64,000 bases of DNA from a virus. Taxonomy: Duplodnaviria; Caudoviricetes. The DNA lies in IMG/VR virus record IMGVR_UViG_3300032038_000018, positions 64,377-128,376 of that record, one strand, 5' to 3'. Position 1 is the first letter of the stretch; every line of letters starts with the position of its first letter. Below are positions 2,021 through 62,128 of this stretch, piece by piece. The translations under genes and the position numbers were made by a program. The notes below the pieces were generated by a model, which saw nothing but the letters and a program-made list of their open reading frames with translations, was not told the origin of the DNA and did no database searches.

Positions 2021-4674
2021 TGAAGATTACTTTATTAGAATTGACTAATTTCGCGGCTATATATGTGGGTCTGAGACGAGAACGTCTCAGACTCGACTTT
2101 TCTAAATTTGATAATATAATAACCATCATAGTTGGCGAAATGGGTACTGGTAAAACTACCATATTATCTCAACTTCATCCATGGTCTAATATAGGAGTAT
2201 TGGATGAGAGAAACTCAGATCAGATGATTAGATCTGAAAAAGACGGAATAAAACACATAGTATTTAAAGACGGAAATGATACATTCGATATAGTCCATAA
2301 ATATACATGGACTAAAGACCATCATTCTACTAAATCATTTTTTAAATTTAATGGAGAAGAATTGAACCCAAATGGAAATGTATCTTCTTTTAAAGATATA
2401 GTAACTAAAATGATGGGTGTTGACCAATCATATCTAAGAATAACTAGGCTCGGTCCTAATGTATCTAATCTAATAGATATGCCATGGAACCAACGTAAAT
2501 CATATGTTGCATCTATAATAGAGAATGTAGATATCTATACTAATATCTTAGTAGAGATAAGAAACATGATAAAGTCATGTGATGCTGAATTATCTGCTCT
2601 TACCAAACAAGTTATGGGTGTAACAGATGATGAACTAAAGAATATGAAAATACAATTAGTAGAATTAGATAAATCATTAGATGATGATTCTAAAAAGATA
2701 CTAAATATGTATGCTGATATACAACAGATAGTATCAGAGAATAATCTGATACTAGGTAAATATGAAAATGATATATCAGCTGCTAAAGGAAAAATAAATA
2801 GCAGACTATCTAGAAATAGAGATAAACAATCTGATTTATCTAATAGGATAAGAGAGCTTGATGGAAATATTGACATAAATACAGTCATGATGGAAATCGG
2901 TAGCATATCTGCTAATATAGACAATACTAAACAGAATAGATCTCTACTTGAGGATCAATACAATACATTATCTGTACAACTAAATCAATTAGAGACTAAG
3001 AAGAATAATTCAGCAGATTCACGGTATATGGAAGAGCTCATAAAGAATTATCAAGATCTGGTTAATAAGGTATCATTCTATAATGAGCAATTAGCTAATT
3101 ATAAGCCCGGAATGACATCTGCCGAAATAAATAGTCTAATATCCGATATACGGACATTAGATGAAATAATATTTGCTACCAGATCTTACAATAGACATAT
3201 TCTAAATGATATCTTATCATCATCTATGAATAATCCTGTATCATATGCTAAAGAGCAGATAAGTAAGTTACAGGAGAGAATAATCAAATTAAAAAGACAT
3301 ATATCCAATCTCAGATATCTTGAATCATATAACGTAACTAGTGAATTACCTGAGATAACTAATAAAGAATGTCTGTTATGTCCTTATTATACTACACATC
3401 CAAATATAGCTAAGAAAACAAATCAAGGGAAGACAGAATCTAAGATAAAAGAAATAAATGCTGAGATAGAAGAATGCCAGAATAAAATTAACTTGTATGA
3501 TGATTACTCTGTGGTAAATACCAAGATAGAGCAATGCAAACGTTTATTCTATAATATAAAAGATAGTGTACAAAAGCTTAGTGCACTTAAGTCTTATGAT
3601 ATTAAAGGCATACTGCTATCTAACAATGTGTGGTATGATTATGATAAAATAATTACAGAGCTAGAGTTGGCTGTAAACTATAATGACAGAAATATTATAT
3701 CATCAAAACTAATTGATCTGAAAGCTGAGATAGACAGATATGAGCATTTAAATTTAGATGAAATAGTTAAGCAGATAAAATCTAAATCTGATATGCTGGA
3801 AGATACTAAAACTGCAATTAAAGAATGCGATGACAATATAACTAAGCTTAATGGTGAATTAGAGCGTCTTAATAAAGTAATGAATGATTACACTATAATA
3901 GATGATCTGAAAAGAGATCTATCTGTAGTGGAAAAATTACTCGAAGATGATGACAAACTATTGGAAGAATTACTAAAAGATTCCGATAAATTGCAATCAA
4001 ATAAATTCGATTTAAATGATTTACAAGATAGGTTCGACCACTTACAGGGACAATACAATTCAAACAAAACAAACTACGAAAAGTTATCCAATACAATCAA
4101 TATTATAGAGACTAGTAAAGCTCAGATAAATGATTTACAAGAAAAGAAATACATATATGAATTAATAAAGGATGCATCATCTCCACAGACAGGTATTCCT
4201 CTTTTATATGTACAACTATTCTTGAATGATTGTATTACAATAACTAATCAACTTATATCTATGGTATTGGATGAGTCTGTAGAAATAATGGGTCTAGATT
4301 TATCTAAACCTGATATGAAAATCCCTTATAGAAAAAATGGTCAAATCATGGAAGATGTAAAGAGTGCATCTCAAGGTGAAAGAGCTGCTATATCTTTAGC
4401 ATTATCATTTGCATTTATGCATAAATGCTTAGCTATGAATAAAGGAGATTATAATTATAACATCTTACTTTTAGATGAAATAGATGCTCCATTTGATTCT
4501 AATGCCAGAGATAAATGCATTCAGATATTAGCTCAACAGATAAAAGTCAATAATGTAGAGCAAGTATTCTTCATTACTCATAATGATAGATACGATGGAT
4601 ATCCAGTTAATGTTATAGCTACATCTGACTCACCAAATATAAGAAAAGATGTACCTCTACTGAAAGTATACTAA
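2020..4674 (+). CDS. sbcC: SbcC/Rad50-like SMC-family ATPase
   Basis: Walker A GEMGTGKTT, long coiled coils around a CLLC zinc hook, signature ASQGE, Walker B LLLDE, H-loop ITH. Confidence 0.9.
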   Translation: MKITLLELTNFAAIYVGLRRERLRLDFSKFDNIITIIVGEMGTGKTTILSQLHPWSNIGVLDERNSDQMIRSEKDGIKHIVFKDGNDTFDIVHKYTWTKDHHSTKSFFKFNGEELNPNGNVSSFKDIVTKMMGVDQSYLRITRLGPNVSNLIDMPWNQRKSYVASIIENVDIYTNILVEIRNMIKSCDAELSALTKQVMGVTDDELKNMKIQLVELDKSLDDDSKKILNMYADIQQIVSENNLILGKYENDISAAKGKINSRLSRNRDKQSDLSNRIRELDGNIDINTVMMEIGSISANIDNTKQNRSLLEDQYNTLSVQLNQLETKKNNSADSRYMEELIKNYQDLVNKVSFYNEQLANYKPGMTSAEINSLISDIRTLDEIIFATRSYNRHILNDILSSSMNNPVSYAKEQISKLQERIIKLKRHISNLRYLESYNVTSELPEITNKECLLCPYYTTHPNIAKKTNQGKTESKIKEINAEIEECQNKINLYDDYSVVNTKIEQCKRLFYNIKDSVQKLSALKSYDIKGILLSNNVWYDYDKIITELELAVNYNDRNIISSKLIDLKAEIDRYEHLNLDEIVKQIKSKSDMLEDTKTAIKECDDNITKLNGELERLNKVMNDYTIIDDLKRDLSVVEKLLEDDDKLLEELLKDSDKLQSNKFDLNDLQDRFDHLQGQYNSNKTNYEKLSNTINIIETSKAQINDLQEKKYIYELIKDASSPQTGIPLLYVQLFLNDCITITNQLISMVLDESVEIMGLDLSKPDMKIPYRKNGQIMEDVKSASQGERAAISLALSFAFMHKCLAMNKGDYNYNILLLDEIDAPFDSNARDKCIQILAQQIKVNNVEQVFFITHNDRYDGYPVNVIATSDSPNIRKDVPLLKVY

Positions 4675-4710
4675 AATATACGGGCATACTATGCCCGTAT
4701 ATTATTTTTT
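4675..4710 (+). terminator. Intrinsic terminator hairpin
   Basis: AATATACGGGCAT/ATGCCCGTATATT inverted repeat followed by a T-run, immediately after the sbcC stop. Confidence 0.75.
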
Positions 4711-4715
4711 GTAAC

Positions 4716-4726
4716 TTATATATTAT
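4716..4726 (+). promoter_or_regulatory. Putative early-type phage promoter motif TTATATATTAT
   Basis: Same 11-mer (TTATATATYAT) recurs upstream of genes at 50616, 60042 and 60501; resembles the TATATTAT/TATATTAC early promoters of AR9/phiKZ. Confidence 0.5.
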
Positions 4727-4741
4727 AATAGTGGAAAGGAG

Positions 4742-5149
4742 ATGATTAATATGACCACAAACGAGTCATATCAAATGTATCTAGACAACCAAGAAGTGTG
4801 TGAGATTTGCAACTCACATGCTTCCGATTTGAGGACAATCGCGGAGAACCGCGATGTGTTCTCACTCCTTAAGGAGGACCTGCCACGCCCTCCAAAACGC
4901 AGGAAGGTAATAAAGCTTTTCAAGGAGAAGTTGGTTATCATCCTAATCGCATTCTGTTGCGCAGCATTGTCCATCCAGCACATAGTGCTGACGATGCACG
5001 CAGCAGGTGCAGACGCTCCAATCTTCTACAAAGGGTGGCAACAAGAAGATTGGTGTATCTGTTTACTAATGCTCATTGCGATGGGCATTGACTACTGCGC
5101 ACTGCTAGTAGTCAGACGCAACGAAAGGAGGGTTGAGCATGGAGTTTGA
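4742..5149 (+). CDS. Hypothetical membrane protein (two predicted TM helices)
   Basis: AAGGAG RBS; hydrophobic segments LVIILIAFCCAALSI and WCICLLMLIAMGIDYCALLVV. Confidence 0.6.
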   Translation: MINMTTNESYQMYLDNQEVCEICNSHASDLRTIAENRDVFSLLKEDLPRPPKRRKVIKLFKEKLVIILIAFCCAALSIQHIVLTMHAAGADAPIFYKGWQQEDWCICLLMLIAMGIDYCALLVVRRNERRVEHGV

Positions 5150-5274: not shown

Positions 5275-5937
5275 TCAATTAGCCTTAGACTTATTGGGTG
5301 CATGTGTGGGGTTCTTGCCCCTCTCAGAAGTCTGCTTAGATACATCTACGCGCTTCTTGAGATCCTTGCCAGATGCAGTTGTGATATTGGAAGCCTTAGC
5401 AGAAGAATTATGCTTAGCCTTAAGCACATTAGCCCTTGCCTTATTCTCGTACTTGTCAAAGATCTTCTGTCTATTGGTACGCATAAGACCTCTGAACTTC
5501 TTATACTTTGCATAGAGAGGATCACCCTTCTTGCAAGCTATACGGATGCACTCTCTACGAATAAGACGCTGGCGATTCTTTGCTTTCCAGTCATCAATCT
5601 TAAGAGTCTTTATTGCTTCAAGAGCTCTGGATGCACTAGGAATAAGACCATAAAGTTCCCACTCTACAGCATTCTCCTGTACATAGTCAACGAACTCTGC
5701 ATCGCTCTCAAAAGATTCACGAACTGTATCAAGGAAGATAGTTGCTTCAGCAGCTTCAGTTAATTCAGTATCATCGTCTGCATCTTCAAATACAGGATCA
5801 AAGTCAACGTCAAAATCAACGTCAAAGTCGAAGCTCTCATCAGCAACGTCATCTGCATCTTCGAAATTATCATCGAACGCAATATCATTATCATCATCGT
5901 CAAAAGATATAGCGTCGAGCTCTTCATCTTCAAACAT
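5275..5937 (-). CDS. Putative internal head protein with acidic propeptide and basic C-terminus
   Basis: AAGGAGG RBS; D/E/F-rich N-terminal ~60 aa, AAE and ALE motifs, K/R-rich C-terminal half. Confidence 0.6.
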   Translation of the reverse strand: MFEDEELDAISFDDDDNDIAFDDNFEDADDVADESFDFDVDFDVDFDPVFEDADDDTELTEAAEATIFLDTVRESFESDAEFVDYVQENAVEWELYGLIPSASRALEAIKTLKIDDWKAKNRQRLIRRECIRIACKKGDPLYAKYKKFRGLMRTNRQKIFDKYENKARANVLKAKHNSSAKASNITTASGKDLKKRVDVSKQTSERGKNPTHAPNKSKAN

Positions 5938-6044
5938 TATTGTTTTCCTCCTTTATGAGAATTGGATACGATTTCCGCACCTAATTAACAATGTTGTTCC
6001 ACAGTGTATTCATATTATATAATTTAATTATATATTTTAACTCT

Positions 6045-10513: not shown

Positions 10514-12543
10514 TGGTAAGCCAAGATTTTATAAATGATATAAAGATAGGTACCAATGTTATAGACGGAAAAGAATACAAAGATACATTACAGGCAGTAG
10601 CTGAGATTACATGTGAGATTGTAATGAAGACTCTTGGTCCATATGCATCTACTACTGTTATCGATGATGGCTCTTCTACTTATTCTACTAAGGATGGCTG
10701 GAGCGTTGTCAATAGAATAAGATTTAGTGATGCAATAGAGAATATTCTTTTTGGTTTTATAAAAGATATATCATTCTCTCTGAATAGTAAAGTTGGTGAT
10801 GGTACTACTACAGCTATAGTAGCAGCTAATACTTTCATCAAGAAATTCAGATCTTGGATAGAAAATGCAAGGAATGATAGTGATTCAGACTTCCATAATT
10901 TGAGACAAGCAGATCTTCTTAAGGCTATAGAAGAAACTGCAGACTCTATTATAAATGAACTCAAGTCTGATTCAAGAGTAAGGTATATAGAAAATCCTGA
11001 AGATGTATACAAGATTGCATATATATCTACTAATGGTAATGCGCAGATATCTAAAATGATATCTGATATTTATAGAGAAACATCTAATCCTAATATTCAT
11101 GTAACTCTTAATACAGGTGGAGAAACCAGAGCAGAAATAGAGAATGGGTATAAGATAGATGCTAAGCTTCTTAATGCTGCTTGTCACTTCAATACAAGTG
11201 AAGAAACATGCGAATTTAATGATGAATGCAAAGTTGTAATATTCGATCATAATGTTACATACACTAAGCACTATAAGCTGATACAGTCATTAATTAATTC
11301 TATATGCAATCAGCAGAAGCCTCAGGCACTTGTTATAATTGCACCTTACTATGATGAAATATTTGCATCTGTTATGAGTGCAACTATTCGTAAGATAACT
11401 AATAATGGACAAATTAGTCCTGTTATGTTGGTACAAGTACCTTATAGTACTACTAATCAGAAATGCTACATCAATGACTTTGCTGTATTGTGTGAAACTC
11501 AGATATTTGATTCATCTAAATTAGAGATGTACACACAGATGAATAAAGCACTTAGCGGTGAAGTTGAAGAAGATGAAGAAGCTCAGTCAATATTCAAGTC
11601 ATTAATGGAAGCTAATGAATTCAAGACACCTGAAGATATACTGGATTGCTCTATAGGTAAAGCAAGAAAGCTTACTGTAGGTAAGAACTTTGTTTTATTG
11701 GAGAAATTCAGAAAAGATACTACTATGTATAAGAATACATATGACTTCATTAATAAAGAATATGAAGCAGCTAAAGCAAAGGCTGATGCAAATCAGAATA
11801 GAATTAGTCTTTCATATTCTGAAGCACATATGCGTCTTATAAAATTCTCTGGTCAGACAGGCACAATATTTGTTGGTGGAGACAGTGAGCTCTCATGCAA
11901 ATGCCTTAAAGATGCAGTAGACGATGCAGTACTTGCATGCAGATCTGCATATGAACATGGCTATATAAGAGGGCTCAATCTTGAGACATTATCTGCTATA
12001 ACAAAGCTTAGTAATGAGCTTGCAGTAACAGATACACAGAGTAAACTCAAGAAAGAATGCCTTAGCATGTTCTTTGATGTATTCGAGGAATTAGCTATCA
12101 ACGTAATGTATAACAAATATGCTGATGACGATATTAGCAGAGAAGATTTCGCAAATGCCCCTGTATGGAATAACAAGTGGGTAGGCGGAGATTCAAATAA
12201 GCTTTATCTTAATGATAAAGATATCAATACTCCTAAGCTTATTCTGTATGCATGCATTGAGAATAATTATGAGTATAATATAGTTACTGAGCAATTTGCT
12301 CCTGCAGGTTTCTCTGTAGTAAACTCTGTATCTACTGATATAGAAGTTATAAAAGCTACTACCAGTATTCTTTCTCTGCTCCTATCATCTAATCAGCTTA
12401 TATCTATCAATAGGCAATTTGATAGAGATAAGAGCATAGAAGAAGCAGAGAAGCGTGAGAGACAGCGCTATGCAAATATTGCTGATGGCATCATGTCTTC
12501 TGTTAATAAGTATCTCCCAATAAAGATAAAACCTATGACATAA
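10513..12543 (+). CDS. groEL: Phage-encoded GroEL-like chaperonin
   Basis: KTLGP, STKDG, VGDGTTTA (ATP-binding), VGG...DAVDDAV motifs. Confidence 0.9.
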   Translation: MVSQDFINDIKIGTNVIDGKEYKDTLQAVAEITCEIVMKTLGPYASTTVIDDGSSTYSTKDGWSVVNRIRFSDAIENILFGFIKDISFSLNSKVGDGTTTAIVAANTFIKKFRSWIENARNDSDSDFHNLRQADLLKAIEETADSIINELKSDSRVRYIENPEDVYKIAYISTNGNAQISKMISDIYRETSNPNIHVTLNTGGETRAEIENGYKIDAKLLNAACHFNTSEETCEFNDECKVVIFDHNVTYTKHYKLIQSLINSICNQQKPQALVIIAPYYDEIFASVMSATIRKITNNGQISPVMLVQVPYSTTNQKCYINDFAVLCETQIFDSSKLEMYTQMNKALSGEVEEDEEAQSIFKSLMEANEFKTPEDILDCSIGKARKLTVGKNFVLLEKFRKDTTMYKNTYDFINKEYEAAKAKADANQNRISLSYSEAHMRLIKFSGQTGTIFVGGDSELSCKCLKDAVDDAVLACRSAYEHGYIRGLNLETLSAITKLSNELAVTDTQSKLKKECLSMFFDVFEELAINVMYNKYADDDISREDFANAPVWNNKWVGGDSNKLYLNDKDINTPKLILYACIENNYEYNIVTEQFAPAGFSVVNSVSTDIEVIKATTSILSLLLSSNQLISINRQFDRDKSIEEAEKRERQRYANIADGIMSSVNKYLPIKIKPMT

Positions 12544-12594
12544 GATAGTACATTCCCATAAGCTCGATATTTTACACATAAGGAAGTGGTATAT

Positions 12595-12765
12595 ATGGGT
12601 ATAATTCGAGACTTATGGGAATTCCGTTTATCTAGTATTGAGAAAGAGCCCAACAAACTTATTTATTTGGAAGATTGGTTTAAATTGAATCCCCAATATA
12701 AACCAACGAATGGTACTAAAGATGATAAAGATAAGCCCAAGTCAATGAAGTTCGATAATGAGTAA
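12595..12765 (+). CDS. Small hypothetical protein (56 aa, not in the ORF track)
   Basis: AAGGAAGTGG RBS; MGIIRDLWEFRLSS...KFDNE. Confidence 0.45.
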   Translation: MGIIRDLWEFRLSSIEKEPNKLIYLEDWFKLNPQYKPTNGTKDDKDKPKSMKFDNE

Positions 12766-12785
12766 ATACACTCATTATCGAACTT
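12748..12785 (+). terminator. Hairpin/terminator
   Basis: 16-bp perfect inverted repeat AAGTTCGATAATGAGT/ACTCATTATCGAACTT. Confidence 0.65.
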
Positions 12786-12793
12786 TCTCTGGG

Positions 12794-12807
12794 GACAACT
12801 TATTAAT
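12794..12807 (+). promoter_or_regulatory. Putative late promoter GACA-N6-TAAT
   Basis: Recurrent motif. Confidence 0.6.
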
Positions 12808-12842
12808 TATTTTTTATGGAAATCCACGGAGGTGGGAGATCA

Positions 12843-14900
12843 ATGATTAATAAGATTAATAATAAGACAGGTGAAGATTTGCTTGCTAGTATAGCTAATT
12901 CGATGGCTAAACTTCCAAATATATCTTATCTTGCATCTGTTGTACAAAATATAAAAGATGTCGCTATAACAATGGTTGGTGCTACTGCAACTCAACCCGG
13001 TGTAGGTGGTTTCGTTCCAACCCCGCCTGCATTAAATCAAACAGGTGGCTCATATGGATTTCTAGGATCAGATGGAGAATGGCATACACAAGTTAGTGCA
13101 ACTTTACAACAGTCTAATTTCAACAGAACTAAAACTTCTGCAGCTACAACTGAGAATAAAGTATACTTACTTGGAGCTGCTAATGATTTACCATTAAGCC
13201 AAGATCCTACAAGTATCAATATAAGCACAGTACAGAATGCATCTGAATTATATGCAACTTCATATGTTGGTAAACCTCTTACAGTAAATGGCATATTGAA
13301 TTCATTACAAGATGATGATATTGGTAACTATTATGCATATAATGGTTCTATGACAGGCGAATATATGCCATTGTATAATGGATCTCAATATGTAAACAGA
13401 CTTGTATTCTCTAATAGTGTAATCAATACATATACTGAGAAGAGATGTACTAATGAATTTCTCTTAGGTAAACATGTAGCTATAGTATCAAACTCAACCG
13501 AAATTAATTCTAGTACTGCACCTAGAGCTGCAATAGTTTTAGGTAATCTCCAGTTTAATGCATCTGCTGCATATAAGCCATTTTTAATAAAAGCATATGG
13601 CAATAGCATGAAAATAATGCATGCTACTGAAACCGGTCATTATATTGGCTCTACATATGATACCACAATAGATCCTAATTCTACTATGTCTAAATGGATA
13701 TTCAGTTCAATGAATAGATTTAGATTTAATAACTTCTTAGAAGTAGTTGGTAAGAATGCTGGAGATAATGTACAGAATATAGCTACTAGTGGATTTAATT
13801 TAGATAGCTATTGCACATTTGCAGATGGAACTGTTAAAGGATCATTTACAAGTGCTAATGAAATAAAATTCTTATCAAACTTCCTCTATAATAATAGAAG
13901 ATATTTGAACGAATTTGGATTGTATTCTGGTGAAGGCGGTAATGATGGATACTTATTCAGAACAGCAAATATCAATAATGGTATAACTATTGCTAAGTAT
14001 GAAGTTCCTAATATTGCAGTACCTGATTATTCATCTACATATAGTAAAATCAAATTAGCTGCATTCCTGAAACTGGATAGAGATTTATATATCTCTACCA
14101 ATACAGATATCAATGGTGTTTTATCAATTAAGTCAATCACCGCTGATGTTAGTGATGTTGAATATCGTCAATGGGCAAGTGATAACTTCTCTACGCATGG
14201 AAACTTTATGCATAATTCTGGACAGACTGTTGACATTAAATCACCAACGATTGATTTTATCGGTCCTTATAATGGATTTGATACATACTCATATCCGATA
14301 CCAGCTGAAAGATCTCGTAACGGTGATGCTAAATTCTTTATTAGGGTAAATAATTTGGATTCGTCTAGTAGTTCTGCATTACCTGCACAATGTCAGACAT
14401 TTTCTATTTGTAGTTATAACACATCTTTCTCTGAAGCTACAAATGAAATATTTAAGATATATCGTGCTAATTCAACCTCTGCTGCACAGATAGCTGAGAG
14501 AACTGTTATAATCATAAATGCAGAGAATACCAATTTCAATAATAAAGAAGTTAGTGGTGTTAATAAATTAACATCTACAAATATCTTATCTAATAGCATA
14601 ACAAAATCAAGTGCAGCTGCAACTTTAGTAGTACGCCCAACAACTATAGCGGCAGATGCTTCTACCCAAACAGTTGCTAAATTTAATAATAAGAAACCTT
14701 TATATGCAGCTAGTGATACAACTGTTGTATCTCAAAGTGGTAACGTATGTGCATCAGGCACATTATCAGATCTTCCTGTTGATGAGACAACAGATGATGG
14801 TGTTTACTGGTATAGACCTATTATCGTTACAAAGAGTTCATCTTTAAATGATAAGGTTAGAAATGCTAAGAATGGATATATCTGGGCATATACTGGATAA
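12843..14900 (+). CDS. Putative virion structural protein
   Basis: N/S/T/G-rich, beta-strand-like composition; late-type promoter; GGAGGTGG RBS. Confidence 0.5.
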   Translation: MINKINNKTGEDLLASIANSMAKLPNISYLASVVQNIKDVAITMVGATATQPGVGGFVPTPPALNQTGGSYGFLGSDGEWHTQVSATLQQSNFNRTKTSAATTENKVYLLGAANDLPLSQDPTSINISTVQNASELYATSYVGKPLTVNGILNSLQDDDIGNYYAYNGSMTGEYMPLYNGSQYVNRLVFSNSVINTYTEKRCTNEFLLGKHVAIVSNSTEINSSTAPRAAIVLGNLQFNASAAYKPFLIKAYGNSMKIMHATETGHYIGSTYDTTIDPNSTMSKWIFSSMNRFRFNNFLEVVGKNAGDNVQNIATSGFNLDSYCTFADGTVKGSFTSANEIKFLSNFLYNNRRYLNEFGLYSGEGGNDGYLFRTANINNGITIAKYEVPNIAVPDYSSTYSKIKLAAFLKLDRDLYISTNTDINGVLSIKSITADVSDVEYRQWASDNFSTHGNFMHNSGQTVDIKSPTIDFIGPYNGFDTYSYPIPAERSRNGDAKFFIRVNNLDSSSSSALPAQCQTFSICSYNTSFSEATNEIFKIYRANSTSAAQIAERTVIIINAENTNFNNKEVSGVNKLTSTNILSNSITKSSAAATLVVRPTTIAADASTQTVAKFNNKKPLYAASDTTVVSQSGNVCASGTLSDLPVDETTDDGVYWYRPIIVTKSSSLNDKVRNAKNGYIWAYTG

Positions 14901-22053: not shown

Positions 22054-24813
22054 TTAGTCTATATTTCTGTTAACATCAATGTCAACCATAACAATCTTAA
22101 CAAGATTCTTATGAACTACAGAGATGTACAGATGGAGAATGCCGTATTCAGCTTCTTCAGAAGTTCTAGTGAAGTTTGCAGATATTGACTTAACCTGTGC
22201 AGCCGCATATTTGGGAAGTACAGAGTTAGACAGTATCGTGTTGAACCTCTTAAGATCGCTCATCTCGTTAAACTGATATGCAAAGTTCTCGCATACATGC
22301 TCAACATCTTTCTTGATATCAAGTACGATATGAACATTGTTGATCTCAGTGAGATTAGACAGAGTAAATGCATCACCGAGTACAGGATATCTGGTAGACT
22401 GAGTAGCACGAATTACATCGCCTCTGGAATTAACCTGAGCGTAGTTAACATGCTCTTCAATGAGTCTATCCATATGCATAGAGTCGAGACCCTCATCCAT
22501 AAGCGGAAATACCGACCTAGGAAGATAAGAATCGATTACAGCATACAGAGATCCAGCATAAGGAATATGCTTACCTGCATTTTCTCTCCAGTGCTGAACG
22601 AGATGTCTAGCTAAGTTATAAGTAGAAGTAACTTCTACTATCTTGTAGTTGTAGGGATCTTTGATTCTACCATAGTAAGCATCAATAGAGAAGTACCAGT
22701 ACTTCTTATAGTCGTTACCATTAGTAGCTTCATCGAATGCCTGAACCCATGTATATGCGTCAACCTTAGATACAAGAGTCTCACTTGTACCAGCATCAAG
22801 ATATACTACAAATTCCTCACTACGATGGTTATTTGCCCAGTTGCAAATAGCTATCTTAGTTTCATAAGAATAGTTAGCATCTAAGAAGAAGTCTATCTCA
22901 GTCTTGTTCTTAGAGAGTATATCAGGATAAGGATAATCAGCAGTTACAGTATCAGGTGTAGCAGATATACGATCATCTAAAGTAGGTATCTCTATAACAG
23001 AACCATGCTTAGAAACTACAGTATATCTATCTGCAGAATCGGCAGTCATAAGAGGATCAATAGGATTGCCGTCTACATCTTTAATCATAAGGTCAAGCAG
23101 GAAGTTGTTATTCTCATCGAAGTAAAGAGTAACATCCTTAACCTTTCTTGTCTTAGTGATGGTCTTAACAGTTGTATCTTCTACCCAACTATATGTAACA
23201 GGGTCACCCGCAACAGATACACACTTATAGTAAGTATTGTTAGTGTATATAGGAGCCTCAGTTGTGGTAGAACCGGTATAATGAACAGTGATACCAAGAT
23301 TGCTAGCAGAAGCGGTTGCCATTGTGGTAACATCTTCAATTCTCTTGTTATCAGCAGTAACTACTTCAGGAACACCATTGAACACAATAGTGTTGATGTA
23401 GCTATAATATGCGGATCTAACAACGGATTCACCCTGGAAGATCCTTGTATATGCAGCATCAGAAGCAGCCTTTATCTGTTCAGCGCTAGTAGCTTTACCA
23501 CCATTGTCAATCATTGCAAAAGCACCATCGTTACCGCTCTCAAGAGAAGTACCGATAATGGAGCTAAAGCTGAAGTAAGTAGCATCCTGTGTTCCTTCTT
23601 CTGCAGCAGAAACAGCATATGTAGGATAGTAGCCATGACCATAAGCCTTAAGCTGTTCGTATGTTGTTACGCCTTCAGGAAGAGGATCAGGTAAATTATC
23701 AGGAGCTATAGCTGTATTACAAATGATGTAACCAGTCATAGTCTTGTCAGTGGTAACAACTCTGGAAGCTACCTTCCTCTTATCATGACCAAGAAGAGGA
23801 TCGAACTCATCATAAGAGATATAACCGGGATTTACTCTCTGGTTAAACTCATTATAAAGAAGCTTGATTGCATCTTCATTGAAGTCTACTCTAAGAACAG
23901 AAGAAGCATTACCGTCATTGTCATCATCATTAACAACGTTAGGAATGTACTTAGATACATTTCTTACAATACCGTTAGAAGAAACGGTAACAGCAAACTT
24001 CTCTATTAAGCTAGAACCCTCATAGATCTGGAACCAATAATTCTTGAAGTTATTGGACTTATCTCTATTAGGATCGGAAGTAATAGAAAAGCTGATTGAG
24101 TTACCATAGTGGCCCTTACCAAGAGCTGCTATAGACATAACTCTAACTTCTTTCCAGTCATCAAGACCGCCTGCAGCCTGAGTAGGAACTGTAGGAATTA
24201 CTCTATAAGGGACAACTTCACCGTCAACTGTAACAGTTGCAGGAGCGAGAGAATAAGTTTCAGTTTCACCAGTGCCATCAACAATCTTGTTGATAAGATT
24301 GTTTGCATACTTTTCGTCTGCAACAAGATCAGCAACATTCTTGATAGTATCATCAGTCTTAGCAACGAAGTATACATCAATCTCGCCAGGTACTATTGCA
24401 CCAGCTTTATATGTAACACCGTCAGGACCAACATGATCGTCTGCAGGAGAAATATAATAATCTCTAACTCTATATCTAGCAAAAATATGAAGGTTTGCTA
24501 CTACTGCATCATCTGCAGTGGCACGCAAACAATACATAGTGACATTGTTAGATAAAGCCATTGTACGTGCATTCAGTAAAGGCTGCCCGTATTGCGCTAC
24601 AGAACCATTGCCATAAAGATCATCAAACTGCTCGATACCGGTTACTTTACGAATACCATCAGGACCCTTGGGAGACCTAAATACGCATAAAGTTTTACCG
24701 TACTCGGTACCAGTTTGTATATATCTACGCAATGTATTGTCATTTATGTTAACTTCCACGTGCGGATACTGATGCGCGGGAAGATTAACCGACGTTATGG
24801 TTGCAATAGGCAT
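22054..24813 (-). CDS. Contractile tail sheath protein
   Basis: FDDLYG near the N-terminus, ALGKGHYGNSISFSI, C-terminal LTEINNVHIVLDIKK...FAYQFN; 919 aa; highly expressed codon bias. Confidence 0.8.
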   Translation of the reverse strand: MPIATITSVNLPAHQYPHVEVNINDNTLRRYIQTGTEYGKTLCVFRSPKGPDGIRKVTGIEQFDDLYGNGSVAQYGQPLLNARTMALSNNVTMYCLRATADDAVVANLHIFARYRVRDYYISPADDHVGPDGVTYKAGAIVPGEIDVYFVAKTDDTIKNVADLVADEKYANNLINKIVDGTGETETYSLAPATVTVDGEVVPYRVIPTVPTQAAGGLDDWKEVRVMSIAALGKGHYGNSISFSITSDPNRDKSNNFKNYWFQIYEGSSLIEKFAVTVSSNGIVRNVSKYIPNVVNDDDNDGNASSVLRVDFNEDAIKLLYNEFNQRVNPGYISYDEFDPLLGHDKRKVASRVVTTDKTMTGYIICNTAIAPDNLPDPLPEGVTTYEQLKAYGHGYYPTYAVSAAEEGTQDATYFSFSSIIGTSLESGNDGAFAMIDNGGKATSAEQIKAASDAAYTRIFQGESVVRSAYYSYINTIVFNGVPEVVTADNKRIEDVTTMATASASNLGITVHYTGSTTTEAPIYTNNTYYKCVSVAGDPVTYSWVEDTTVKTITKTRKVKDVTLYFDENNNFLLDLMIKDVDGNPIDPLMTADSADRYTVVSKHGSVIEIPTLDDRISATPDTVTADYPYPDILSKNKTEIDFFLDANYSYETKIAICNWANNHRSEEFVVYLDAGTSETLVSKVDAYTWVQAFDEATNGNDYKKYWYFSIDAYYGRIKDPYNYKIVEVTSTYNLARHLVQHWRENAGKHIPYAGSLYAVIDSYLPRSVFPLMDEGLDSMHMDRLIEEHVNYAQVNSRGDVIRATQSTRYPVLGDAFTLSNLTEINNVHIVLDIKKDVEHVCENFAYQFNEMSDLKRFNTILSNSVLPKYAAAQVKSISANFTRTSEEAEYGILHLYISVVHKNLVKIVMVDIDVNRNID

Positions 24814-26735: not shown

Positions 26736-26956
26736 AGAAAACTCTACCCCCTCTCCCTCTGCGCACGTGGTCGGTTAAGACCACGTGCGCATTCACCCTC
26801 TCCCCCTGTAAAGATGATTTAGGAAGCCCGAGCCGAGCACACGAAAGCCGCACGAGCGGCGAGGCTCCAGCCCGCGAACGAAAGGGTAGAGTTCGCATGA
26901 GAACAAAACGAGCCAGCGAAGCCGCCGGTGAGCAAGTAGCCAAACAACAGCACCTC
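26736..26956 (-). repeat. DGR variable region 1 plus downstream homing/hairpin cassette
   Basis: 221-bp GC-rich block repeated at 28783-29003; coding differences fall mostly at codon positions 1 and 2; no A at codon position 3; 13-bp stem hairpin at 26760-26791. Confidence 0.85.
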
Positions 26957-28720
26957 ATAAAGTCCACTCGTTTGGTCTCCACGATAGTAAACCGCGTCGC
27001 ATAATCCCGTAGTTGCACTTCCACCATCACAGTCTATGGTATAACCACCATTATTTAAATCATAATGTATATCTTTACCATGTTTCCAAGTAACGCCTGC
27101 CGTAGTATGAGTGAGATATCCTATATCAGTATAATCACTTGATATTGTAGCTGTAGTTTTAGTAACTGCCTTTAAGTCATTTTGTATTAATACATGTGCA
27201 TTTGTATTACTATCATAACTATACACTGCATTGCCACATACTTCAAGTGTACCTGAAAAAAGTTCTATGCCACTCATTACACTTGGGAATCTGCTATTAA
27301 CAGCAAAATTACCAACTTCATAAGTACCGTCTTTGCCAAGTATATCAAGAGAATATCCGGTTTTATATATAGAAGTTTGTACACTACAAGTTGTATCTAC
27401 TGTAACATTGCTATCTATGTATACAAGACTATATGTAGTCTCACCACTAGCACTATATCCTATAACATTACTATTGCCATCATATGCATATAGCGTATAA
27501 GTAGAGCCAGTAATATCCAATACAAGATTTATGTCAACATCGCTAGTTTCAGATGTATTAGGATCTGTATATGTAAATTGTATACTAATATTATTATCAT
27601 CTAAATCTACTGCATTACCAGTATTAGATATCTTCTTGCACAATATATCAAAATCTGTACTACTAGATATACTATAATCTGTATTAGATATGGTAAATCC
27701 AGTCTTTACATTCTTAAATAATACGATATCATTAGATTTATTTGTAATAGTTGCATTGGAAGCTATATTCATGGATCTTTGATATTGTCTATCAGACTCT
27801 GGATTACCTATATCGATTCTAGTATCTACATATAATTTATTTGCATCTGTAGTTGTAAGCACTACATAATTCTTATTAGTAGTGGCAGTCTGTATATACA
27901 GTCTATTATAATAATAAGAAATTAATCCATTCAAATTATTTGCAAAGTTTGTATGGCCGTATTTCATCATGAATATACGCTGTATCATAGCAGCCTGACC
28001 CATTGTTATAGATGTCATGTTTTCATTTCTAGCATGATACTTATCTACACATGTATTATACGAGGGACCGGTTACTGTGGTAAATGCTTGATGCACCCAC
28101 GGATATTCACCAGCACTACTATAAGGAGCGCCATCTATCCATACAGATGGGAATTTAGTTATTGTATAAAATCCCTGGTCTTTACCATTTATATCTTTGC
28201 ATAAATTATTTAACGTAAATCCGTCTCTGGGAGTATCTGTCCACTCTATGCACAAATAGTCTGTTCCATTTACGGTTTCTTTATATACCCTCTCATATAC
28301 TGAAGCGAATAAGCATACTACGTCTACTTTGCCATAGTAACTAAATCCGGGTTCACCAACTATTGCATCTATTACTATATTGCCATCATCGCCATAGTGT
28401 ACATTAGCATCTATAGATCTAAATACATTTATATTGGCATAATCATCTCTGCCAGCTACAGTACGTGTAGAAGGTTCTACTACTAAACCTTCATTAGCAC
28501 CATATTTAGTACCGGCGGGGACGATTACTCCAGCACTAGTGTAAGCGAATTTTACTCCATATATTTTTTCGTCTCTATTTGCTGCAAAATATAATTTCAG
28601 AAATTCAGATTTATTTTTAAATGGTAATTTATTTATTTTATTTAATTCTCTCTGTTTAGCTTTATCATTATAATATGATAATAAAGATGAATTAATTAGA
28701 GATTTATATTCATTTGCCAT
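26819..28720 (-). CDS. DGR target protein 1 (putative receptor-binding tail protein with CLec-like C-terminus)
   Basis: GIELFSGTLEVC block and C-terminal EVLLFGYLLTGGFAGSFCSHANSTLSFAGWSLAAR; paralogue of 28866-30770. Confidence 0.8.
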   Translation of the reverse strand: MANEYKSLINSSLLSYYNDKAKQRELNKINKLPFKNKSEFLKLYFAANRDEKIYGVKFAYTSAGVIVPAGTKYGANEGLVVEPSTRTVAGRDDYANINVFRSIDANVHYGDDGNIVIDAIVGEPGFSYYGKVDVVCLFASVYERVYKETVNGTDYLCIEWTDTPRDGFTLNNLCKDINGKDQGFYTITKFPSVWIDGAPYSSAGEYPWVHQAFTTVTGPSYNTCVDKYHARNENMTSITMGQAAMIQRIFMMKYGHTNFANNLNGLISYYYNRLYIQTATTNKNYVVLTTTDANKLYVDTRIDIGNPESDRQYQRSMNIASNATITNKSNDIVLFKNVKTGFTISNTDYSISSSTDFDILCKKISNTGNAVDLDDNNISIQFTYTDPNTSETSDVDINLVLDITGSTYTLYAYDGNSNVIGYSASGETTYSLVYIDSNVTVDTTCSVQTSIYKTGYSLDILGKDGTYEVGNFAVNSRFPSVMSGIELFSGTLEVCGNAVYSYDSNTNAHVLIQNDLKAVTKTTATISSDYTDIGYLTHTTAGVTWKHGKDIHYDLNNGGYTIDCDGGSATTGLCDAVYYRGDQTSGLYEVLLFGYLLTGGFAGSFCSHANSTLSFAGWSLAARAAFVCSARAS

Positions 28721-28782
28721 TATAAAACACCTCAATGAGAAATATATTTCAAGAAAGAGGTGGAGTGTTTATTTTCAGATTC

Positions 28783-29003
28783 AGAAAACTCTACCCCCTC
28801 TCCCTCTGCGCATGTGGGCTCAACCGCCCACATGCGCATTCACCCTCTCCCCCTGTAAAGATGATTTAGGAAGCCCGAGCCGAGCAAACGAAAGCCGCGC
28901 GAGCGGCGAAGTACCAGGCCGCGGTCGAAAGGGCAATGTTCGCAAGAGAACAAAACGGGCCAGCGGTGCCGCCGGTGCCCAAGGAGCCAAACAACAGCAC
29001 CTC
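28783..29003 (-). repeat. DGR variable region 2 plus downstream homing/hairpin cassette
   Basis: Second copy of the 221-bp block; hairpin at 28807-28838 with compensatory stem changes. Confidence 0.85.
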
Positions 29004-30770
29004 GTAGAAACCTGATTTCTGATCTCCAAGATAGTAAACACCATCACAGAACCCTGTAGTTGTAGATGCACCATCACAGTTATATAATAGACCACCTAAT
29101 GCTAAGTTATAATGCACGTCTCTTACATACTTCCAACTAGTTCCACTCGTAGTATGACTATGATATCCTGTATCTGTGTATTCTGCTGTGATTGTATTCG
29201 TGGTTTTAGTGATTGCTCTTAAATCATTTTGTAATAAGATATGAACCATAGTGTTACTATCATAATTATAAACTGCATTACCACATACTTCGTTTGTGCC
29301 ACACATCAGTTCTATGCCACTTATTACACTAGGATTCCTCAAACTTGTATTAAATGCTCCGTTAATATAAGAACCATCTTTACCAAGTATTCCGAGAGAA
29401 TATCCTGTATTATAACACGCACTGGTCTGAACACTGCATGTTGTATCTGCAGTTATCGGTCTGTCAAAGTATACTGCAGTATAAGTAGTTTCTCCACTAG
29501 CACTATATCCTATTACATTATTACTGCCATCATATGCATATAGAGTATAAACTCCACCAGTTATGTCAAGTACTAAGTTTATATCTACTGTACTTTCTTC
29601 AGATGTATTGGGATCGGTATATATAAACTGCATTGTGTTATTATCGTCATCTAAATCTACAGCATCTCCAGTAGATGCTAGTTTCTTACATAAGATATCA
29701 AATTCAGATTCACTAGCTATGGTATAATTAGTATCGGATATAGTAAATCCAGCTTTTACATTTTTAAATAAAACTATATCATTAGTTTTACCGGTCACAT
29801 ACAAATTTTGGGCTACACTGAATTGTCTATACGATTGTCTAGCAGACGTCGGATCACCAACATCTATCTGTGTATCAGCATATAACTTATTGGCATCTGT
29901 AGTAGTAAGCACTACATAATTTTTATTTGTAACAGCAGTCTGTAAATACAGCAATACTTGATAATACGAGGATAGACCATTCAATTTCGTTTGATAGTTT
30001 GTATGGCCATATTTCATCATAAATATACGTTGTATCGTAGCTAACTGACCAATAGTCATAGCAGACATATTTTCATTTCTAGCATGATATCTGTCAACAC
30101 AGTTGTTATATGACGGACCAGCTACTCCAGATATATGACCATTTACCCATGGATATCTACCAGCACTACTATAAGGAGCTCCATCTATCCATACAGATGG
30201 GAATTTAGTTATTGTATAAAATCCTTGATTTTTTCCATCTATTCCTTTACATAATATATTTAATGTAAACCCATCTCTGGGAGTATCAGTCCATTCTATA
30301 CATAGCCACTCTACGCCAGATACCGTTTCAGTATATATTTTCTCATATACAGGAGCAAATAAGCATACTACGTCTACTTTACCATAATAGCTAAAACCAT
30401 CTTCACCTTCTAAATAATCTATTACAATACTTCCATCTGATCCATAGTGTACATTAGCATCTATAGATCTAAATACATTTATATTGGCATAATCATCTCT
30501 ACCGGCTACAGTTCTAGTAGATGGTTCTACAACTAGCCCATTATTAGCACCATACTTAACTCCACCACTAGCTTGGATTACGCCATTAGCATCTTTGGGG
30601 AATTTAACCCCATATATTTTTCCGTCTCTATTCATCAGAAACATTTTGGCTAATTGCTCTGATTTGTCTTTTATATATTGACTCTTTATTAAGTCATCTT
30701 CTCTATCTGACTTATTGGAATCGTATCTTTCCAATAAGTCAGTATTTATTAATTTACTATAGTCTGGCAT
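28866..30770 (-). CDS. DGR target protein 2 (putative receptor-binding tail protein with CLec-like C-terminus)
   Basis: C-terminal EVLLFGSLGTGGTAGPFCSLANIALSTAAWYFAAR; paralogue of 26819-28720 along its whole length. Confidence 0.8.
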   Translation of the reverse strand: MPDYSKLINTDLLERYDSNKSDREDDLIKSQYIKDKSEQLAKMFLMNRDGKIYGVKFPKDANGVIQASGGVKYGANNGLVVEPSTRTVAGRDDYANINVFRSIDANVHYGSDGSIVIDYLEGEDGFSYYGKVDVVCLFAPVYEKIYTETVSGVEWLCIEWTDTPRDGFTLNILCKGIDGKNQGFYTITKFPSVWIDGAPYSSAGRYPWVNGHISGVAGPSYNNCVDRYHARNENMSAMTIGQLATIQRIFMMKYGHTNYQTKLNGLSSYYQVLLYLQTAVTNKNYVVLTTTDANKLYADTQIDVGDPTSARQSYRQFSVAQNLYVTGKTNDIVLFKNVKAGFTISDTNYTIASESEFDILCKKLASTGDAVDLDDDNNTMQFIYTDPNTSEESTVDINLVLDITGGVYTLYAYDGSNNVIGYSASGETTYTAVYFDRPITADTTCSVQTSACYNTGYSLGILGKDGSYINGAFNTSLRNPSVISGIELMCGTNEVCGNAVYNYDSNTMVHILLQNDLRAITKTTNTITAEYTDTGYHSHTTSGTSWKYVRDVHYNLALGGLLYNCDGASTTTGFCDGVYYLGDQKSGFYEVLLFGSLGTGGTAGPFCSLANIALSTAAWYFAARAAFVCSARAS

Positions 30771-33456: not shown

Positions 33457-33945
33457 TTATGCAAACATTGCATCTATATCGCTAGTAGATGCTAGTCCTA
33501 TATCTGCTAATGCGACATATGTAGATGCCGCATCTGTTTTAGATAAATAAGTCGTGCCAGCATCTGTCTGTGATAGATACGTAGATGATGCATCCGTCTT
33601 AGAAAGATACGTACTACTAGCATCTGACTTAGACAAATAATCACTAGCTGCATCTGTTTTGGAAAGATATGTCGAAGTTGCATCGGACTTAGATAGATAA
33701 TTCGTTGATGCATCTGTCTGTGTTAGATATGTAGATGCGGCATCAGTCTTAGCTAAATATGTTGAAGCTGCATCTGTTTTAGATAGATATGTACTAGGAA
33801 TAGCATCAAGTGTACTATCTAATTCATCTACAGCTGCTTGTATATTTGTGGCAGTTAATTCACTCGTGGTATTGACATATGCTATATTAATCGCTCTATT
33901 ACCAGAGCCACCATATTCAATACCCCTCTTAATTATTTTTCCCAT
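33457..33945 (-). CDS. Fibre-like protein with 10-aa repeats
   Basis: Nine YLSKTDAxST-type repeats after an ATNIQAAVDEL motif. Confidence 0.6.
   Translation of the reverse strand: MGKIIKRGIEYGGSGNRAINIAYVNTTSELTATNIQAAVDELDSTLDAIPSTYLSKTDAASTYLAKTDAASTYLTQTDASTNYLSKSDATSTYLSKTDAASDYLSKSDASSTYLSKTDASSTYLSQTDAGTTYLSKTDAASTYVALADIGLASTSDIDAMFA
33520..33789. repeat. Degenerate 30-bp coding tandem repeat (9 units)
   Basis: Period-30 repeats encoding YL(S/A/T)(K/Q)(T/S)DAxxx. Confidence 0.85.
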
Positions 33946-33957
33946 ATGCGTCACCTA

Positions 33958-36704: not shown

Positions 36705-39700
36705 GATACAGTCACCGTCCCTAATGTTATAGTAATTCTATGAGTATTTTCATCGTATTCAACATTTGTTACAGCAGTTCCAGATGCACTGTCTTTATAT
36801 GCTAAATCACCAAGACCGGTTGGAGTTCCTCCACCACCAGAGCCATATTTATATCCAATTATTTTATAGATATAAGGTTCATTTCCTGAGCCTTCGTTTG
36901 AATAGGCATATGATTGCCTTACTTTTGTATCATATATGAAAGCAGTCAATGTTCTTTGAGACCAACCGGCCCAATTTATTAAAGGATTATCCAATAAATG
37001 AGGAACGTCGTATATGCACGAAGCAGCTTGATATGTGCCTTCGCGTGCATTATCATTAGGCGAGCATATAATAAATTCTACTGTATCATAGTTGCTAAGA
37101 TTATCTAATAATGTTACGTCTTGTTGATATGGTATATGCTGTAAATAACTACCGCTATCATATAACGTAGCACGTGTAAATGACGATCCACCAGATGAGC
37201 CACCGCCAGATCCATACTTATATCCATATATCTTGTATATCTGTGGATTAAAGGCAGAACCTTCGTAGTTAGTTCCACGTAGAGTCTCATTAAATGTTGT
37301 ATCCGTGAATTTAACAACGCACCAACGTCCTTCATATCCAGCATAATGAACACCATTGGTATCTGAATCCAAAGCATCAGTAACGTCTGCAATAAATGTA
37401 TCGCACTGATATCCATTTGCGGTCCCATTATCTTGTGGATTACCAACGACGCATATAACGCTATCGTAATTACTAAGATTATCGGATAAAGCTACATCAG
37501 TTTGATATGGAGCACCATCGATATAGCTGCCACTATCATAGAGTAACGTACGACCAAACGGTTCTCCACCGCCGCCGCTACCGCCACCACTAGCGTCGTA
37601 GTCAGTTATGAGATATGTAATATCGGGATCAGGCGATACTAATGCGTCATATTGAGCTTGTGTTAATTCAACAAACTCAGGAATGGGATTATTATTCTTA
37701 GTAATATTACCATTGACATTTAATGTATCATCAGATACTTCAACTATATTAGATCTATCATTGTCGGCAGTACCATTACCAACTATGAATAAATGTTTAG
37801 GGTCATTTGCACCAGTGCCATCTGCAACGTTGTATTTACCTATTACAGTAGATGCATTTGCAGTAGCTATAGTATTCTGTCCACTAGCATGTGAGTATTC
37901 ACCAGTTGCAGAGTTATTCTTATAATCATTAAAGATTTCACCATTCTTATTGGTATTCGAATCGAATGTACCAACTGTCTTAAATGCTCCTAAACTGATC
38001 TCAGACATAGATGAAATTATTCTTCTGAGATCTACTACAACTTTAGGAAATTCTCCAGTTTCATATTCTTGAAGATATCTAATAAATGCAGTAGATGCAC
38101 CACTAAAGAATGCATTCATCTGTGCTACAGGAACATTTAATGTTATAGATGGATCAGATGTGTCTCTAAGTGTACCTGCTGTTACTGCATTACCACTTAT
38201 ATCACAATTGCCTGTAAGAAGATTTATTCTAAGAGGAATTACATCGCTTCTTATAGGACCATCTATCTGTTGTGCTGCAGTAATATGCATATACATATAC
38301 TGCTTATCTTTATGCATTATAATACTAGAAGAAGGCTCTATTATTTCACCTGCACGATGTAATATAGTTACGCCATCTTCATCATATACATCTTCTGTAT
38401 ATCTTTGTAATAAGTCCTTAAATGTGATATTATTGTCATAAGATATTATCTTAACGGACTCATTCATCATTCCATCATAAGGACTAGAATCCCATCCTGT
38501 AAACTTTTTACCCTGCTGTACCATGATATTTGTCATATCATAAGATACAGTATTAGTTGTATCAGGATTGTGGATATATAATGTATGATAAGCATATAAC
38601 TCAGATTCATCAGAATCAAAATAGAATGTTACTATATAATACTCATCATTAACACCTGTGTTAGCAGGTATAGTATGAGATACATACTCGTTATTATCTA
38701 TTTTAACCTCTATAGTTTTAGCTACAGATGCCTTCTTAAATAATATAGCAACCGTAAAACCTTCTAAACTATTTGAAACGAAATTCTGAGAAATTACGCC
38801 ATTACCAACTATTGCAATCTTTGCAATAGTTTGATTTAAGAACTGATCTACTATTATAGTAGAAGCAGCAGCATCTATATTATTATATCCATTCCATTCG
38901 CTATTAAAGCCACCAAGGAAATTGCTATTCCTGATGAGATTAACAACACCGAAATCTTTAATATCTAATGCACCATTAGCGCCAATTTCAACATTTGAAT
39001 CAGTTGGAACTGTAACGGTACCTGCAGTAACTATGCCGGTATTATAATCTGTAGATGCATAAGAAGTTCTTACAAGTGCATTATCAAGAGCACTTTCAAC
39101 ATTCTCAACTCTGCTTGTTAAATTACCAACTCTTGTAGTTGCTGTATTAGCTGCAGTAATAGCATTATCTATATTAGTTAGATCTGCACTAGTCATTAAA
39201 CCATTAGAGTTTGCTGATCTAGTCGGTATTCTACTAGTAGCATTTTCTGCAGTTATGAATTTGAGATCAGCTTGACCTTTTGTATAGAATTCAGCATCAA
39301 GTCTGGATAATATATTTGTGATATTATCACTGTTATTAGTAACACGTGTATTTATCTCACCAACATTGAGTATGGTTGCATATGTTGATGCAGCATCAGT
39401 CTGTGTTAGATATGTTGCAGCTAAAGTATCATTATCGGTATAATTGTCACTAATGTTATCGTTAATTGCAGCTAATGCAGCAGCAACTTCGAGCTTATAT
39501 GCATTTAATGTGGCTTCCTCTAAGTAAACACCGGCAGGCGCAAACTTAACAGTTAAATCATCTAATAATGCACTATTTAATACATTAGTACTATCGGCGT
39601 TACCATTAAAGCCAGCTTCCAATCTAATCAGATCAGTATCTTGAGGAGCAGGTGTACCATCAGGATGATTTCCTGTTAATGACTCAAATGTTACCAGATT

Positions 39701-61630: not shown

Positions 61631-62128
61631 ATGAATCGATTTAATTATATTAAGCCATTCTTTAAATATCAAATAATTTATCAGTCTATGGAGAATATCC
61701 ATAGACTGATAATACATTAATTATTTTGCAGGTTTTACGACGCCGTTCTTTATGCCTACGCGTTTATTATATTCTGGTAATGTGTCGTATGGCCCAGTAT
61801 TATATATACCATATTGATGCATGGTATTTCTATGACGGGCATATCCTTTTGCCGTACCTTTACCCCTATTGGCTTCTTTATATTCCTGGAAACCGTAAAC
61901 GCCTTCTCCGCGCAATCTTTGGTTTTCTGCGCGTCTTGAGTCTTGGATAGTTCTCTCACTAAGCCAACTATTACCACGACCATGTGTTTGCTTTAAGTAA
62001 TTGCGTTCACGCTCAACTCTAACTTGATCGCGACTTTTGCCTTTGTTTTGTTCATGCCTATAATCCCTAGCAGGTCCTTCCATAGCTTCAAAGTAGTTCT
62101 CATCGAACACGTCTACATCTTCGTATGC
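61259..62128. repeat. 75-bp inverted repeat (61259-61333 / 62054-62128)
   Basis: 3 mismatches in 75 bp; both arms encode AYEDVD(M/V)FDENYFEAMEGPARDYRH. Confidence 0.85.

Follow-up and report, generated by a model that had tools for sequence, protein, structure and literature searches.

We analysed a pair of neighbouring paralogous genes, here called gene B and gene C, in a 64,000-nt window (positions 64377-128376) of the 128,376-bp record IMGVR_UViG_3300032038_000018, a virus of the Caudoviricetes (Duplodnaviria). The 3' ends of both genes carry the pattern left by a diversity-generating retroelement (DGR). A template repeat (TR) and a third target of this element lie elsewhere in the same genome, and its reverse transcriptase (RT) is present in close relatives. 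The same phage is represented in ENA by a 236,423-bp contig (ERZ27256903:k141_1963151), which matches the record exactly over its first 14 kb. Coordinates are those of the window unless marked as contig positions. VR_B, VR_C and VR_A denote the variable repeats (VR) of gene B, gene C and the third paralogue. The window features with which we begin are:

28866-30770, minus strand: gene C, 634 aa, predicted tail-module protein with a C-terminal variable domain of C-type lectin (CLec) fold.
26819-28735, minus strand: gene B, paralogue of gene C, 638 aa counted from a TTG start (633 aa in the public annotation).
28869-29001, minus strand: VR_C, 133 nt of homology to the TR, with an adenine-derived variable core at 28910-28985.
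26822-26954, minus strand: VR_B, 133 nt of homology to the TR, with its variable core at 26863-26938.

The bodies of genes B and C are 69% identical, and gene C has 29 homologues at 40-81% identity. Their last 138 nt (46 codons) differ at 18 positions, distributed 8/8/2 over codon positions 1, 2 and 3, with 11 non-synonymous and 2 synonymous codon changes. In contrast, the 450 nt directly upstream hold 157 differences, for which the third codon position dominates (41/45/71). Not one of the 45 sense codons in either gene end finishes in A, as against 201 of 593 and 205 of 589 (34%) in the rest of the two genes. Both ends form islands with a GC content of 0.60-0.62, compared to 0.345 for the window, and a marked excess of A on the plus strand, that is, a depletion of A on the coding strand. 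A preliminary description, made from the letters of the window, had noted the 18 differences with 16 of them at positions 1 and 2, the absence of A-ending sense codons, the third-position divergence upstream and a GC-rich island in an AT-rich genome. We reproduced each of these, down to the same codon pairs, but the island runs farther than had been indicated: its conserved part continues about 75 nt beyond each stop codon, via a hairpin element, to approximately 26745 and 28792.

Near-orthologues of the window genes, too, differ mainly in these tails. A near-orthologue of gene B (P0064) differs from it at 16 of about 587 body residues and at 12 of about 46 tail residues, all of the latter in variable columns. 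Across 30 homologues, down to 40% identity, identical columns vary, and the scaffold F-G-x-L-x-x-G-...-G-P-F-C-...-A-L-S-...-W is invariant. A search of IMG/VR with back-translated target peptides and the VR pattern recovered no relatives of the target, and comparison of the target to a phage collection returned only unannotated gut-phage matches at 24-30% identity.

The preliminary description had read this pattern as adenine-directed mutagenesis by a DGR, and had proposed that a template reconstructed from the two gene ends be searched for in the genome. We searched the record with the gene end and found two further copies, namely the end of a third paralogue and a non-coding, TR-like copy:

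Contig 2549-4462, plus strand: third target gene, a 637-aa paralogue.
Contig 4327-4459: VR_A, the variable repeat of the third target.
Contig 4651-4763: remnant of the resident TR, non-coding, 190 nt downstream of the third target.

The cassette locus (contig 2549-4790) lies 87-91 kb from genes B and C and on the opposite strand. At each place where the three gene ends vary, the resident TR copy reads AAC or AAT. Thus the claim that both window genes are targets stands, but their total is three rather than two; no fourth target was found in the 128-kb record. The template that had been reconstructed agrees at 98 of 101 and 97 of 101 bases with the TRs of two close relatives, and at 88 of 101 with the resident remnant.

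One of these relatives, found by a TR-specific pattern scan of public contigs, is the JGI contig Ga0310690_10080195 (L014), with 88% identity to the surroundings of the third target. It carries, in order, the target end with its VR and hairpin, the TR, a spacer of about 260 nt, an RT gene, and then the small genes that in the present genome follow the TR. The RT-bearing cassette occurs in at least five assemblies (L014; ENA ERZ27257207; ENA ERZ27291670, L016; SRR16020868, L015; and JGI 3300033463), with the synteny helicase, target, TR, RT, and proteins of 131, 103, 104 and 754 aa. Because five independent assemblies carry these cassettes, they are unlikely to be assembly artefacts. The relatives' RT is 390-396 aa long, matches PF00078 (RVT_1) at E 1.6e-12, contains the motifs IGSYLSQ and YMDD, and belongs to a 16-member cluster at 90% identity. 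Its top real match in the PDB is 8ub7 (328 aa, E 7e-10), in which the molecule is named only "Reverse transcriptase" and which we take to be the Bordetella bRT. NCBIfam and PADLOC gave only sub-threshold, generic RT matches (group II, Drt3a, retron and UG classes), which neither name it as a DGR RT nor assign it to a defence family. We did not find an accessory protein of the Avd or HRDC type: PF05635 (Avd) has no match in the 128-kb record, and the open reading frames (ORFs) flanking the RT in relatives (131-155 aa) match nothing in Pfam or NCBIfam. Such a protein is common among DGRs, not universal.

With an intact template at hand, we compared each VR of the present genome to the first 91 nt of the L014 TR. 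VR_C is changed at 13 of 20 adenine sites and 1 of 71 other sites (Fisher p 5e-10), VR_B at 14 of 20 and 3 of 71 (p 2e-9), and VR_A at 14 of 20 and 2 of 71 (p 4e-10). The relatives show the same restriction over the full 133 nt: the VR of L014 differs from its own TR at 13 of 21 adenine sites and none of 112 others, and that on the L016 contig at 10 of 21 and 1 of 112. The resident remnant gives a weaker pattern (11-13 of 18 adenine sites and 5-8 of 73 others). VR_A and VR_B hold 2-4 private changes away from adenines; VR_C holds none. Chance is excluded, because the changes fall on the adenines of a template that was found independently, with p of about 1e-9 to 1e-10 per copy. These counts support the identification of the window gene ends as DGR-written variable repeats.

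The region 3' of each target gene contains a second DGR hallmark. Its components in the window are:

28808-28837, minus strand: post-VR hairpin of gene C, a GC-rich stem of 12-13 bp with a 6-nt loop, about 27 nt past the end of TR homology.
26761-26790, minus strand: post-VR hairpin of gene B, identical to that of the third target (contig 4491-4520).
28794-28853, minus strand: mirror-image G-tracts around the gene C hairpin, GGGGGAGAGGG ... GGGAGAGGGGG.
26747-26806, minus strand: mirror-image G-tracts around the gene B hairpin, the same tracts as at gene C.

After each stop codon the order is a G-tract, a perfect GC-rich hairpin and a mirror-image G-tract. The G-tracts are identical in every copy, including those of L014 and of a further relative (L010). 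Between the hairpins of genes B and C, the loop and two stem positions vary, and each stem change is matched by a compensating one. A more distant relative, L009 (a 234-kb contig, about 50% identical in protein), shares this layout of G-tracts and hairpin but has an unrelated stem sequence. Retrohoming of the Bordetella phage BPP-1 DGR requires a hairpin or cruciform at this place, for which the structure of the stem counts and not its sequence (PMC3240598). By the criteria of that study, a DGR-type target-site element, consisting of a GC-rich VR 3' end and a GC-rich hairpin, is present in all copies, its 12-13 bp stem lying in each about 27 nt from where the TR homology stops. We considered and rejected a plain terminator, as no T-run directly follows the stem. 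L009 itself carries three tandem paralogues (L009:8149-14011). The first has an AT-rich, apparently undiversified end; the second and third have GC-rich, VR-like ends, and G-tract and hairpin are found only at the second.

The preliminary description had also predicted a CLec fold at the C-terminus, and structural modelling bears this out. An AlphaFold2 model of the gene C protein built from 30 sequences (pLDDT 84, pTM 0.78) aligns by VIA-align to TaqVP of Thermus aquaticus (PDB 5vf4) with Z 19.6 over 275 residues at a root-mean-square deviation of 3.9, spanning model residues 95-629, and to Mtd of BPP-1 with Z 8.0 over 203-204 residues. Its middle domain, an inserted beta-domain at about residues 268-450, matches phage tail-tip domains. 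Foldseek alone gave no PDB match at E<=0.001, with TaqVP notable only by its probability of 0.98. Going by the model, the variable protein has a C-type lectin fold with the VR at its C-terminal end. Residues 521-630 match phrog_5302, annotated as "tail protein", and the target genes adjoin the tail sheath and other virion genes. The sheath gene, which we list for context only, places the targets in the tail module:

22054-24813, minus strand: tail sheath gene (phrog_19666, E 3e-28).

In the orthologous region of relatives, PF23806 (Phage_TTP_14) lies beside the sheath. The neighbouring tail genes and the PHROG tail match suggest that the target proteins probably act in receptor binding.

The virus had been taken for a jumbo phage that encodes an RNA polymerase (RNAP), and further matches agree with this. 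The gene at window 57895-59574, for a split RNAP beta subunit, matches phrog_2986 (E 5e-89), and a gene with an Rpb1 domain (PF00623) lies further along the genome (on L027). Besides the tail sheath, the record also codes for a major head protein, GroEL and a split DNA polymerase. By RNAP, the nearest isolates are the Bacillus phages BpSp, Goe21, AR9 and PBS1 (34-35% identity), Staphylococcus jumbo phages and Listeria phage LPJP1, with a range of 31-35% for the whole set. Assignment to the AR9-type jumbo phages is thus justified on gene content, given the split beta/beta' RNAP genes and a genome of more than 200 kb. Beyond the record, a 1104-aa NrdD (anaerobic ribonucleotide reductase) is split by a LAGLIDADG domain, likely an intein (L030:10483-13797).

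Several repeats elsewhere in the window were recorded in passing. A 165-aa ORF on the minus strand (33457-33954) contains 9-10 tandem copies of a 30-nt unit, encoding 10-aa repeats, at 33502-33799, and a related unit recurs at 39375-39422 inside a 1379-aa ORF. A 148-nt inverted repeat has arms at 61241-61388 and 61999-62146, 82% complementary and 610 nt apart; beside it, at 62094-62195, are 51-nt tandem units of acidic-repeat coding sequence, on opposite strands.

Near the cassette, two tandem paralogues of 104-106 aa with about 76% nucleotide identity lie just 3' of it (L007:5326-5646 and 5664-5978), two proteins match PF27846 (tSAM_targ_Cxxx_rpt; L007:8328-9944 and 11822-12877), and an ORF just 5' of the third target is annotated in public data (L008 2202-2351). 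The target cassettes constitute 270-nt inverted repeats about 87 kb apart. On one contig of ENA ERZ27291670 (k119_84754; L029:6001-8100 and L016:1-60), DNA that in the present genome lies downstream of gene B (a 106-aa protein, an acetyltransferase and the sheath) adjoins a target of the VR_A type, which is accompanied by its upstream helicase and DnaB genes. At this joint the two G-tracts have no hairpin between them. The arrangement reflects either a genuine inversion between cassettes or a chimeric assembly at the repeat. The 257,737-bp contig that encodes a related 365-aa RT (P0155) may come from a further DGR-bearing jumbo phage or from a bacterium.

We then compared the cassette of the present genome to those of the RT-bearing relatives. 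Positions 1-641 of L014 align to contig 4127-4741 at 88% identity and positions 1-224 of L016 to contig 4519-4741 at 95%, while from contig 4834 onward identity to the RT-bearing relatives is only 69-70%. Between these points, about 1.5 kb of the relatives (the TR 3' end, the spacer and the RT) is represented by approximately 92 nt, with a terminator-like hairpin at its end. The same RT-less layout is present in JGI Ga0326511_10009901 (L010, 97.7% identical) and in ENA ERZ27256863. We rejected an assembly collapse as its origin: the junction lies off the repeat boundary, the 92 or so nucleotides are unique sequence, and three assemblies agree. The replaced tail of the remnant TR reads in frame as a family-like C-terminus (..SWNFGSRPAFG..), like those of distant family members, and the junction therefore resembles recombination inside the TR with a divergent lineage. 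Neither this tail nor the L009-type VR pattern was found in IMG/VR.

An RT encoded together with the TR is a feature of DGRs, and close relatives have it at this same locus. In the present genome no RT was found in contig 1-172,585 (73% of 236,423 bp) by PF00078, tblastn and a hidden Markov model (HMM). The HMM, built from 21 related RTs, recovered its controls at E of about 1e-140 and gave no match at E<=10 in this range. Contig 116,699-172,585 was reached stepwise by six exact-protein look-ups, and no further TR or VR copies were found in it. The approximately 8 kb upstream of the contig start, as seen in a syntenic relative, hold no RT either. RT searches of a set of 5.8 billion proteins returned none from this phage's contig among 18 matches to a single RT or among the best 120 of 452 matches to the 21-RT profile, which is a weak negative.

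Two non-adenine positions bear on which template wrote the repeats. All three VRs of the present genome have C at TR positions 36 and 42, and the resident TR has T at both. Position 36 is T (AAT) in all four TR alleles (resident, L010, L014 and L016), where the VR codons read CGC, ACC and TTC. Position 42 is a TR polymorphism that was faithfully copied in L014, L016/L029 and L010. Since C36 and C42 are shared by all the VRs and absent from the resident TR, the three repeats appear to have been written from one TR allele now gone from this genome. This putative donor is unsampled among the four alleles. Conversely, no VR contains the private non-adenine bases of the remnant, G54 and C79, or its divergent tail.

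We therefore considered how the targets were written and whether they still are. In the reading that we prefer, and hold to be fairly probable, they were written by the DGR of an RT-bearing ancestor and are orphaned in this RT-less genome. The RNA of the TR would have been reverse-transcribed with random misincorporation opposite adenines, and the resulting cDNA would have replaced the VR in the C-terminal, lectin-fold tip of the tail-associated protein, guided by the GC-rich 3' end of the VR and the downstream hairpin. Genes B and C would be remote targets of a cassette 87-91 kb away, and the third paralogue its adjacent target. The VRs would have been inherited after the block from TR to RT was replaced, leaving in the present genome three targets written by the DGR and, of the template, a chimeric remnant without an RT. 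As its own cassette lacks the RT and the 3' part of the TR, the targets are probably no longer rewritten by the phage's own genes. We infer the direction of the event, loss of the RT rather than gain, and the present inactivity of the system.

Some observations weigh against this. Contig 172,586-236,423 (63.8 kb, 27%) and an assembly gap lie outside the scan and could hold an RT. VR_A of the present genome and of L010, both RT-less, differs at 12 positions, 9-10 of which are TR adenines, even though the flanks (a few hundred bases) are less than 1% apart. Moreover, L010 VR_A has T42 and TCC, matching the remnant TR. The VR_A difference fits rewriting after loss of the RT, but is also explained by recombination, as the target gene body is a mosaic, one part diverging by 8-10% and another by 0.5%. 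Given this mosaic, it is plausible that recombination spread the RT-less block after the VRs had been written.

Rewriting after RT loss could also proceed in trans: co-infecting, RT-bearing sister phages might supply RT and template RNA to the intact target cassettes, with their initiation of mutagenic homing (IMH) hairpins, of the RT-less genome. The three cassettes, with GC-rich end, hairpin and G-tracts, are indeed intact and near-identical to those of the RT-bearing relatives, and assemblies whose ENA accession numbers are neighbours include strains of both kinds, with and without the RT. The VR_A of the two RT-less genomes differing mostly at adenine sites, and the C36/C42 markers of a single non-resident allele in every VR, would both be expected. 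However, neighbouring accessions fall short of co-occurrence in one sample or cell, and inheritance with recombination in a mosaic gene fits the same data. The private non-adenine changes in VR_A and VR_B are what unrefreshed copies would show, though VR_C lacks them. We regard writing in trans as unlikely.

Another possibility is a DGR that is split but complete, with its RT in the last 64 kb or the assembly gap, and with the TR remnant and terminator forming a stand-alone template gene. The part of the contig outside the scan leaves room for such an RT, and the family-like sequence at the 3' end of the resident TR suggests a TR end of foreign origin more than it does random decay. Yet a working template should leave its marks, and G54, C79 and the 3' end of the remnant are in no VR; the spacer that follows the TR in relatives is gone; and neither 172.6 kb of this contig, nor the upstream region of the syntenic relative, nor the protein-set matches listed above yielded an RT. 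This arrangement strikes us as quite improbable.

That no retroelement was involved, and that the pattern arose by positive selection together with gene conversion between the receptor-binding tips of paralogues, is very hard to credit: tandem paralogues and a mosaic gene body show that recombination acts here, but such a process leaves unexplained the agreement of the changed sites with adenines in a template located independently (p of about 1e-10), the lack of A-ending codons, the relatives' RT beside the template and the DGR-type hairpin, and is already contradicted by the RT-bearing relatives and the VR/TR adenine counts.

The present element is related in mechanism to the BPP-1 DGR (mtd-avd-TR-brt), which likewise rewrites, by adenine-specific transfer from TR to VR, the C-terminal lectin-fold tip of a tail protein, here matched by Mtd. 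Both have a VR with a GC-rich 3' end followed by a GC-rich hairpin, at a distance within the 4-34 bp range of phage DGRs (PMC3240598). Unlike BPP-1, the present system has no Avd gene and has three targets, of which two lie opposite in strand to the TR and 87-91 kb away from it. Its stem is 12-13 bp with a 6-nt loop, nested in mirror G-tracts, whereas that of BPP-1 is 7-10 bp with a GRNA tetraloop. No distinct IMH* exists in the coding part, since in the relatives that carry the RT, TR and VR stay identical up to and including the stop codon. The host genome also differs, being that of a lytic-type, AR9-like jumbo phage with the RT missing rather than a 42-kb temperate phage. TaqVP, the closest structural match, shares the C-terminal lectin-fold variable domain, but is a 380-aa bacterial protein at 16% sequence identity, compared to 634 aa with an inserted beta-domain here.

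Avd-less DGRs with multiple or remote targets in gut phages (Wu et al. 2018, PMC5758913; Roux et al. 2021, PMC8144416) are elements of the same type; those considered here belong to small, mostly temperate phages or to cells and have a one-piece cassette. A 27.8-kb phage record, IMGVR_UViG_3300001528_000090, has such a one-piece arrangement of target, TR and RT; its TR has a 27-nt motif in common, its RT is 25% identical, and the C-terminal half of its target is homologous. In mechanism, then, this is an ordinary DGR without Avd, with one adjacent and two remote targets.

The AR9/PBS1-type jumbo phages (AR9, PBS1, BpSp and the Staphylococcus MarsHill group) resemble the present phage in their split multisubunit RNAP, at 32-35% identity, and in genomes of about 240-255 kb. 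The preliminary description had considered a DGR unusual in such a phage, and none is described for this group in the literature that we searched. The MarsHill group has a retron-like RT that, per its authors, is not a DGR, and a survey of 224 jumbo phages reported no RT-diversified lectin (FGS) domains. In a complete genome of 254,916 bp with terminal repeats, from a more distant relative of the present phage, both the RT and the target family are absent.

DGRs are described mainly from small temperate phages and cells, and no other natural means of targeted protein hypermutation is known from prokaryotes or the viruses that infect them. Here a complete DGR, in the relatives, and a decapitated one, in the present genome, occur in a lineage of AR9-like, RNAP-encoding jumbo phages. 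A template proved predictable from two variable repeats alone, in this case with 97-98% accuracy. Should the unlikely case of writing in trans turn out to be true, the diversifier would be a shared good of the phage population, used by some genomes that do not encode it. The near-identical genomes with and without the RT, each with three targets, form a natural pair that would allow direct measurement of whether the variable tips become fixed, deteriorate or go on diversifying after loss of the RT.

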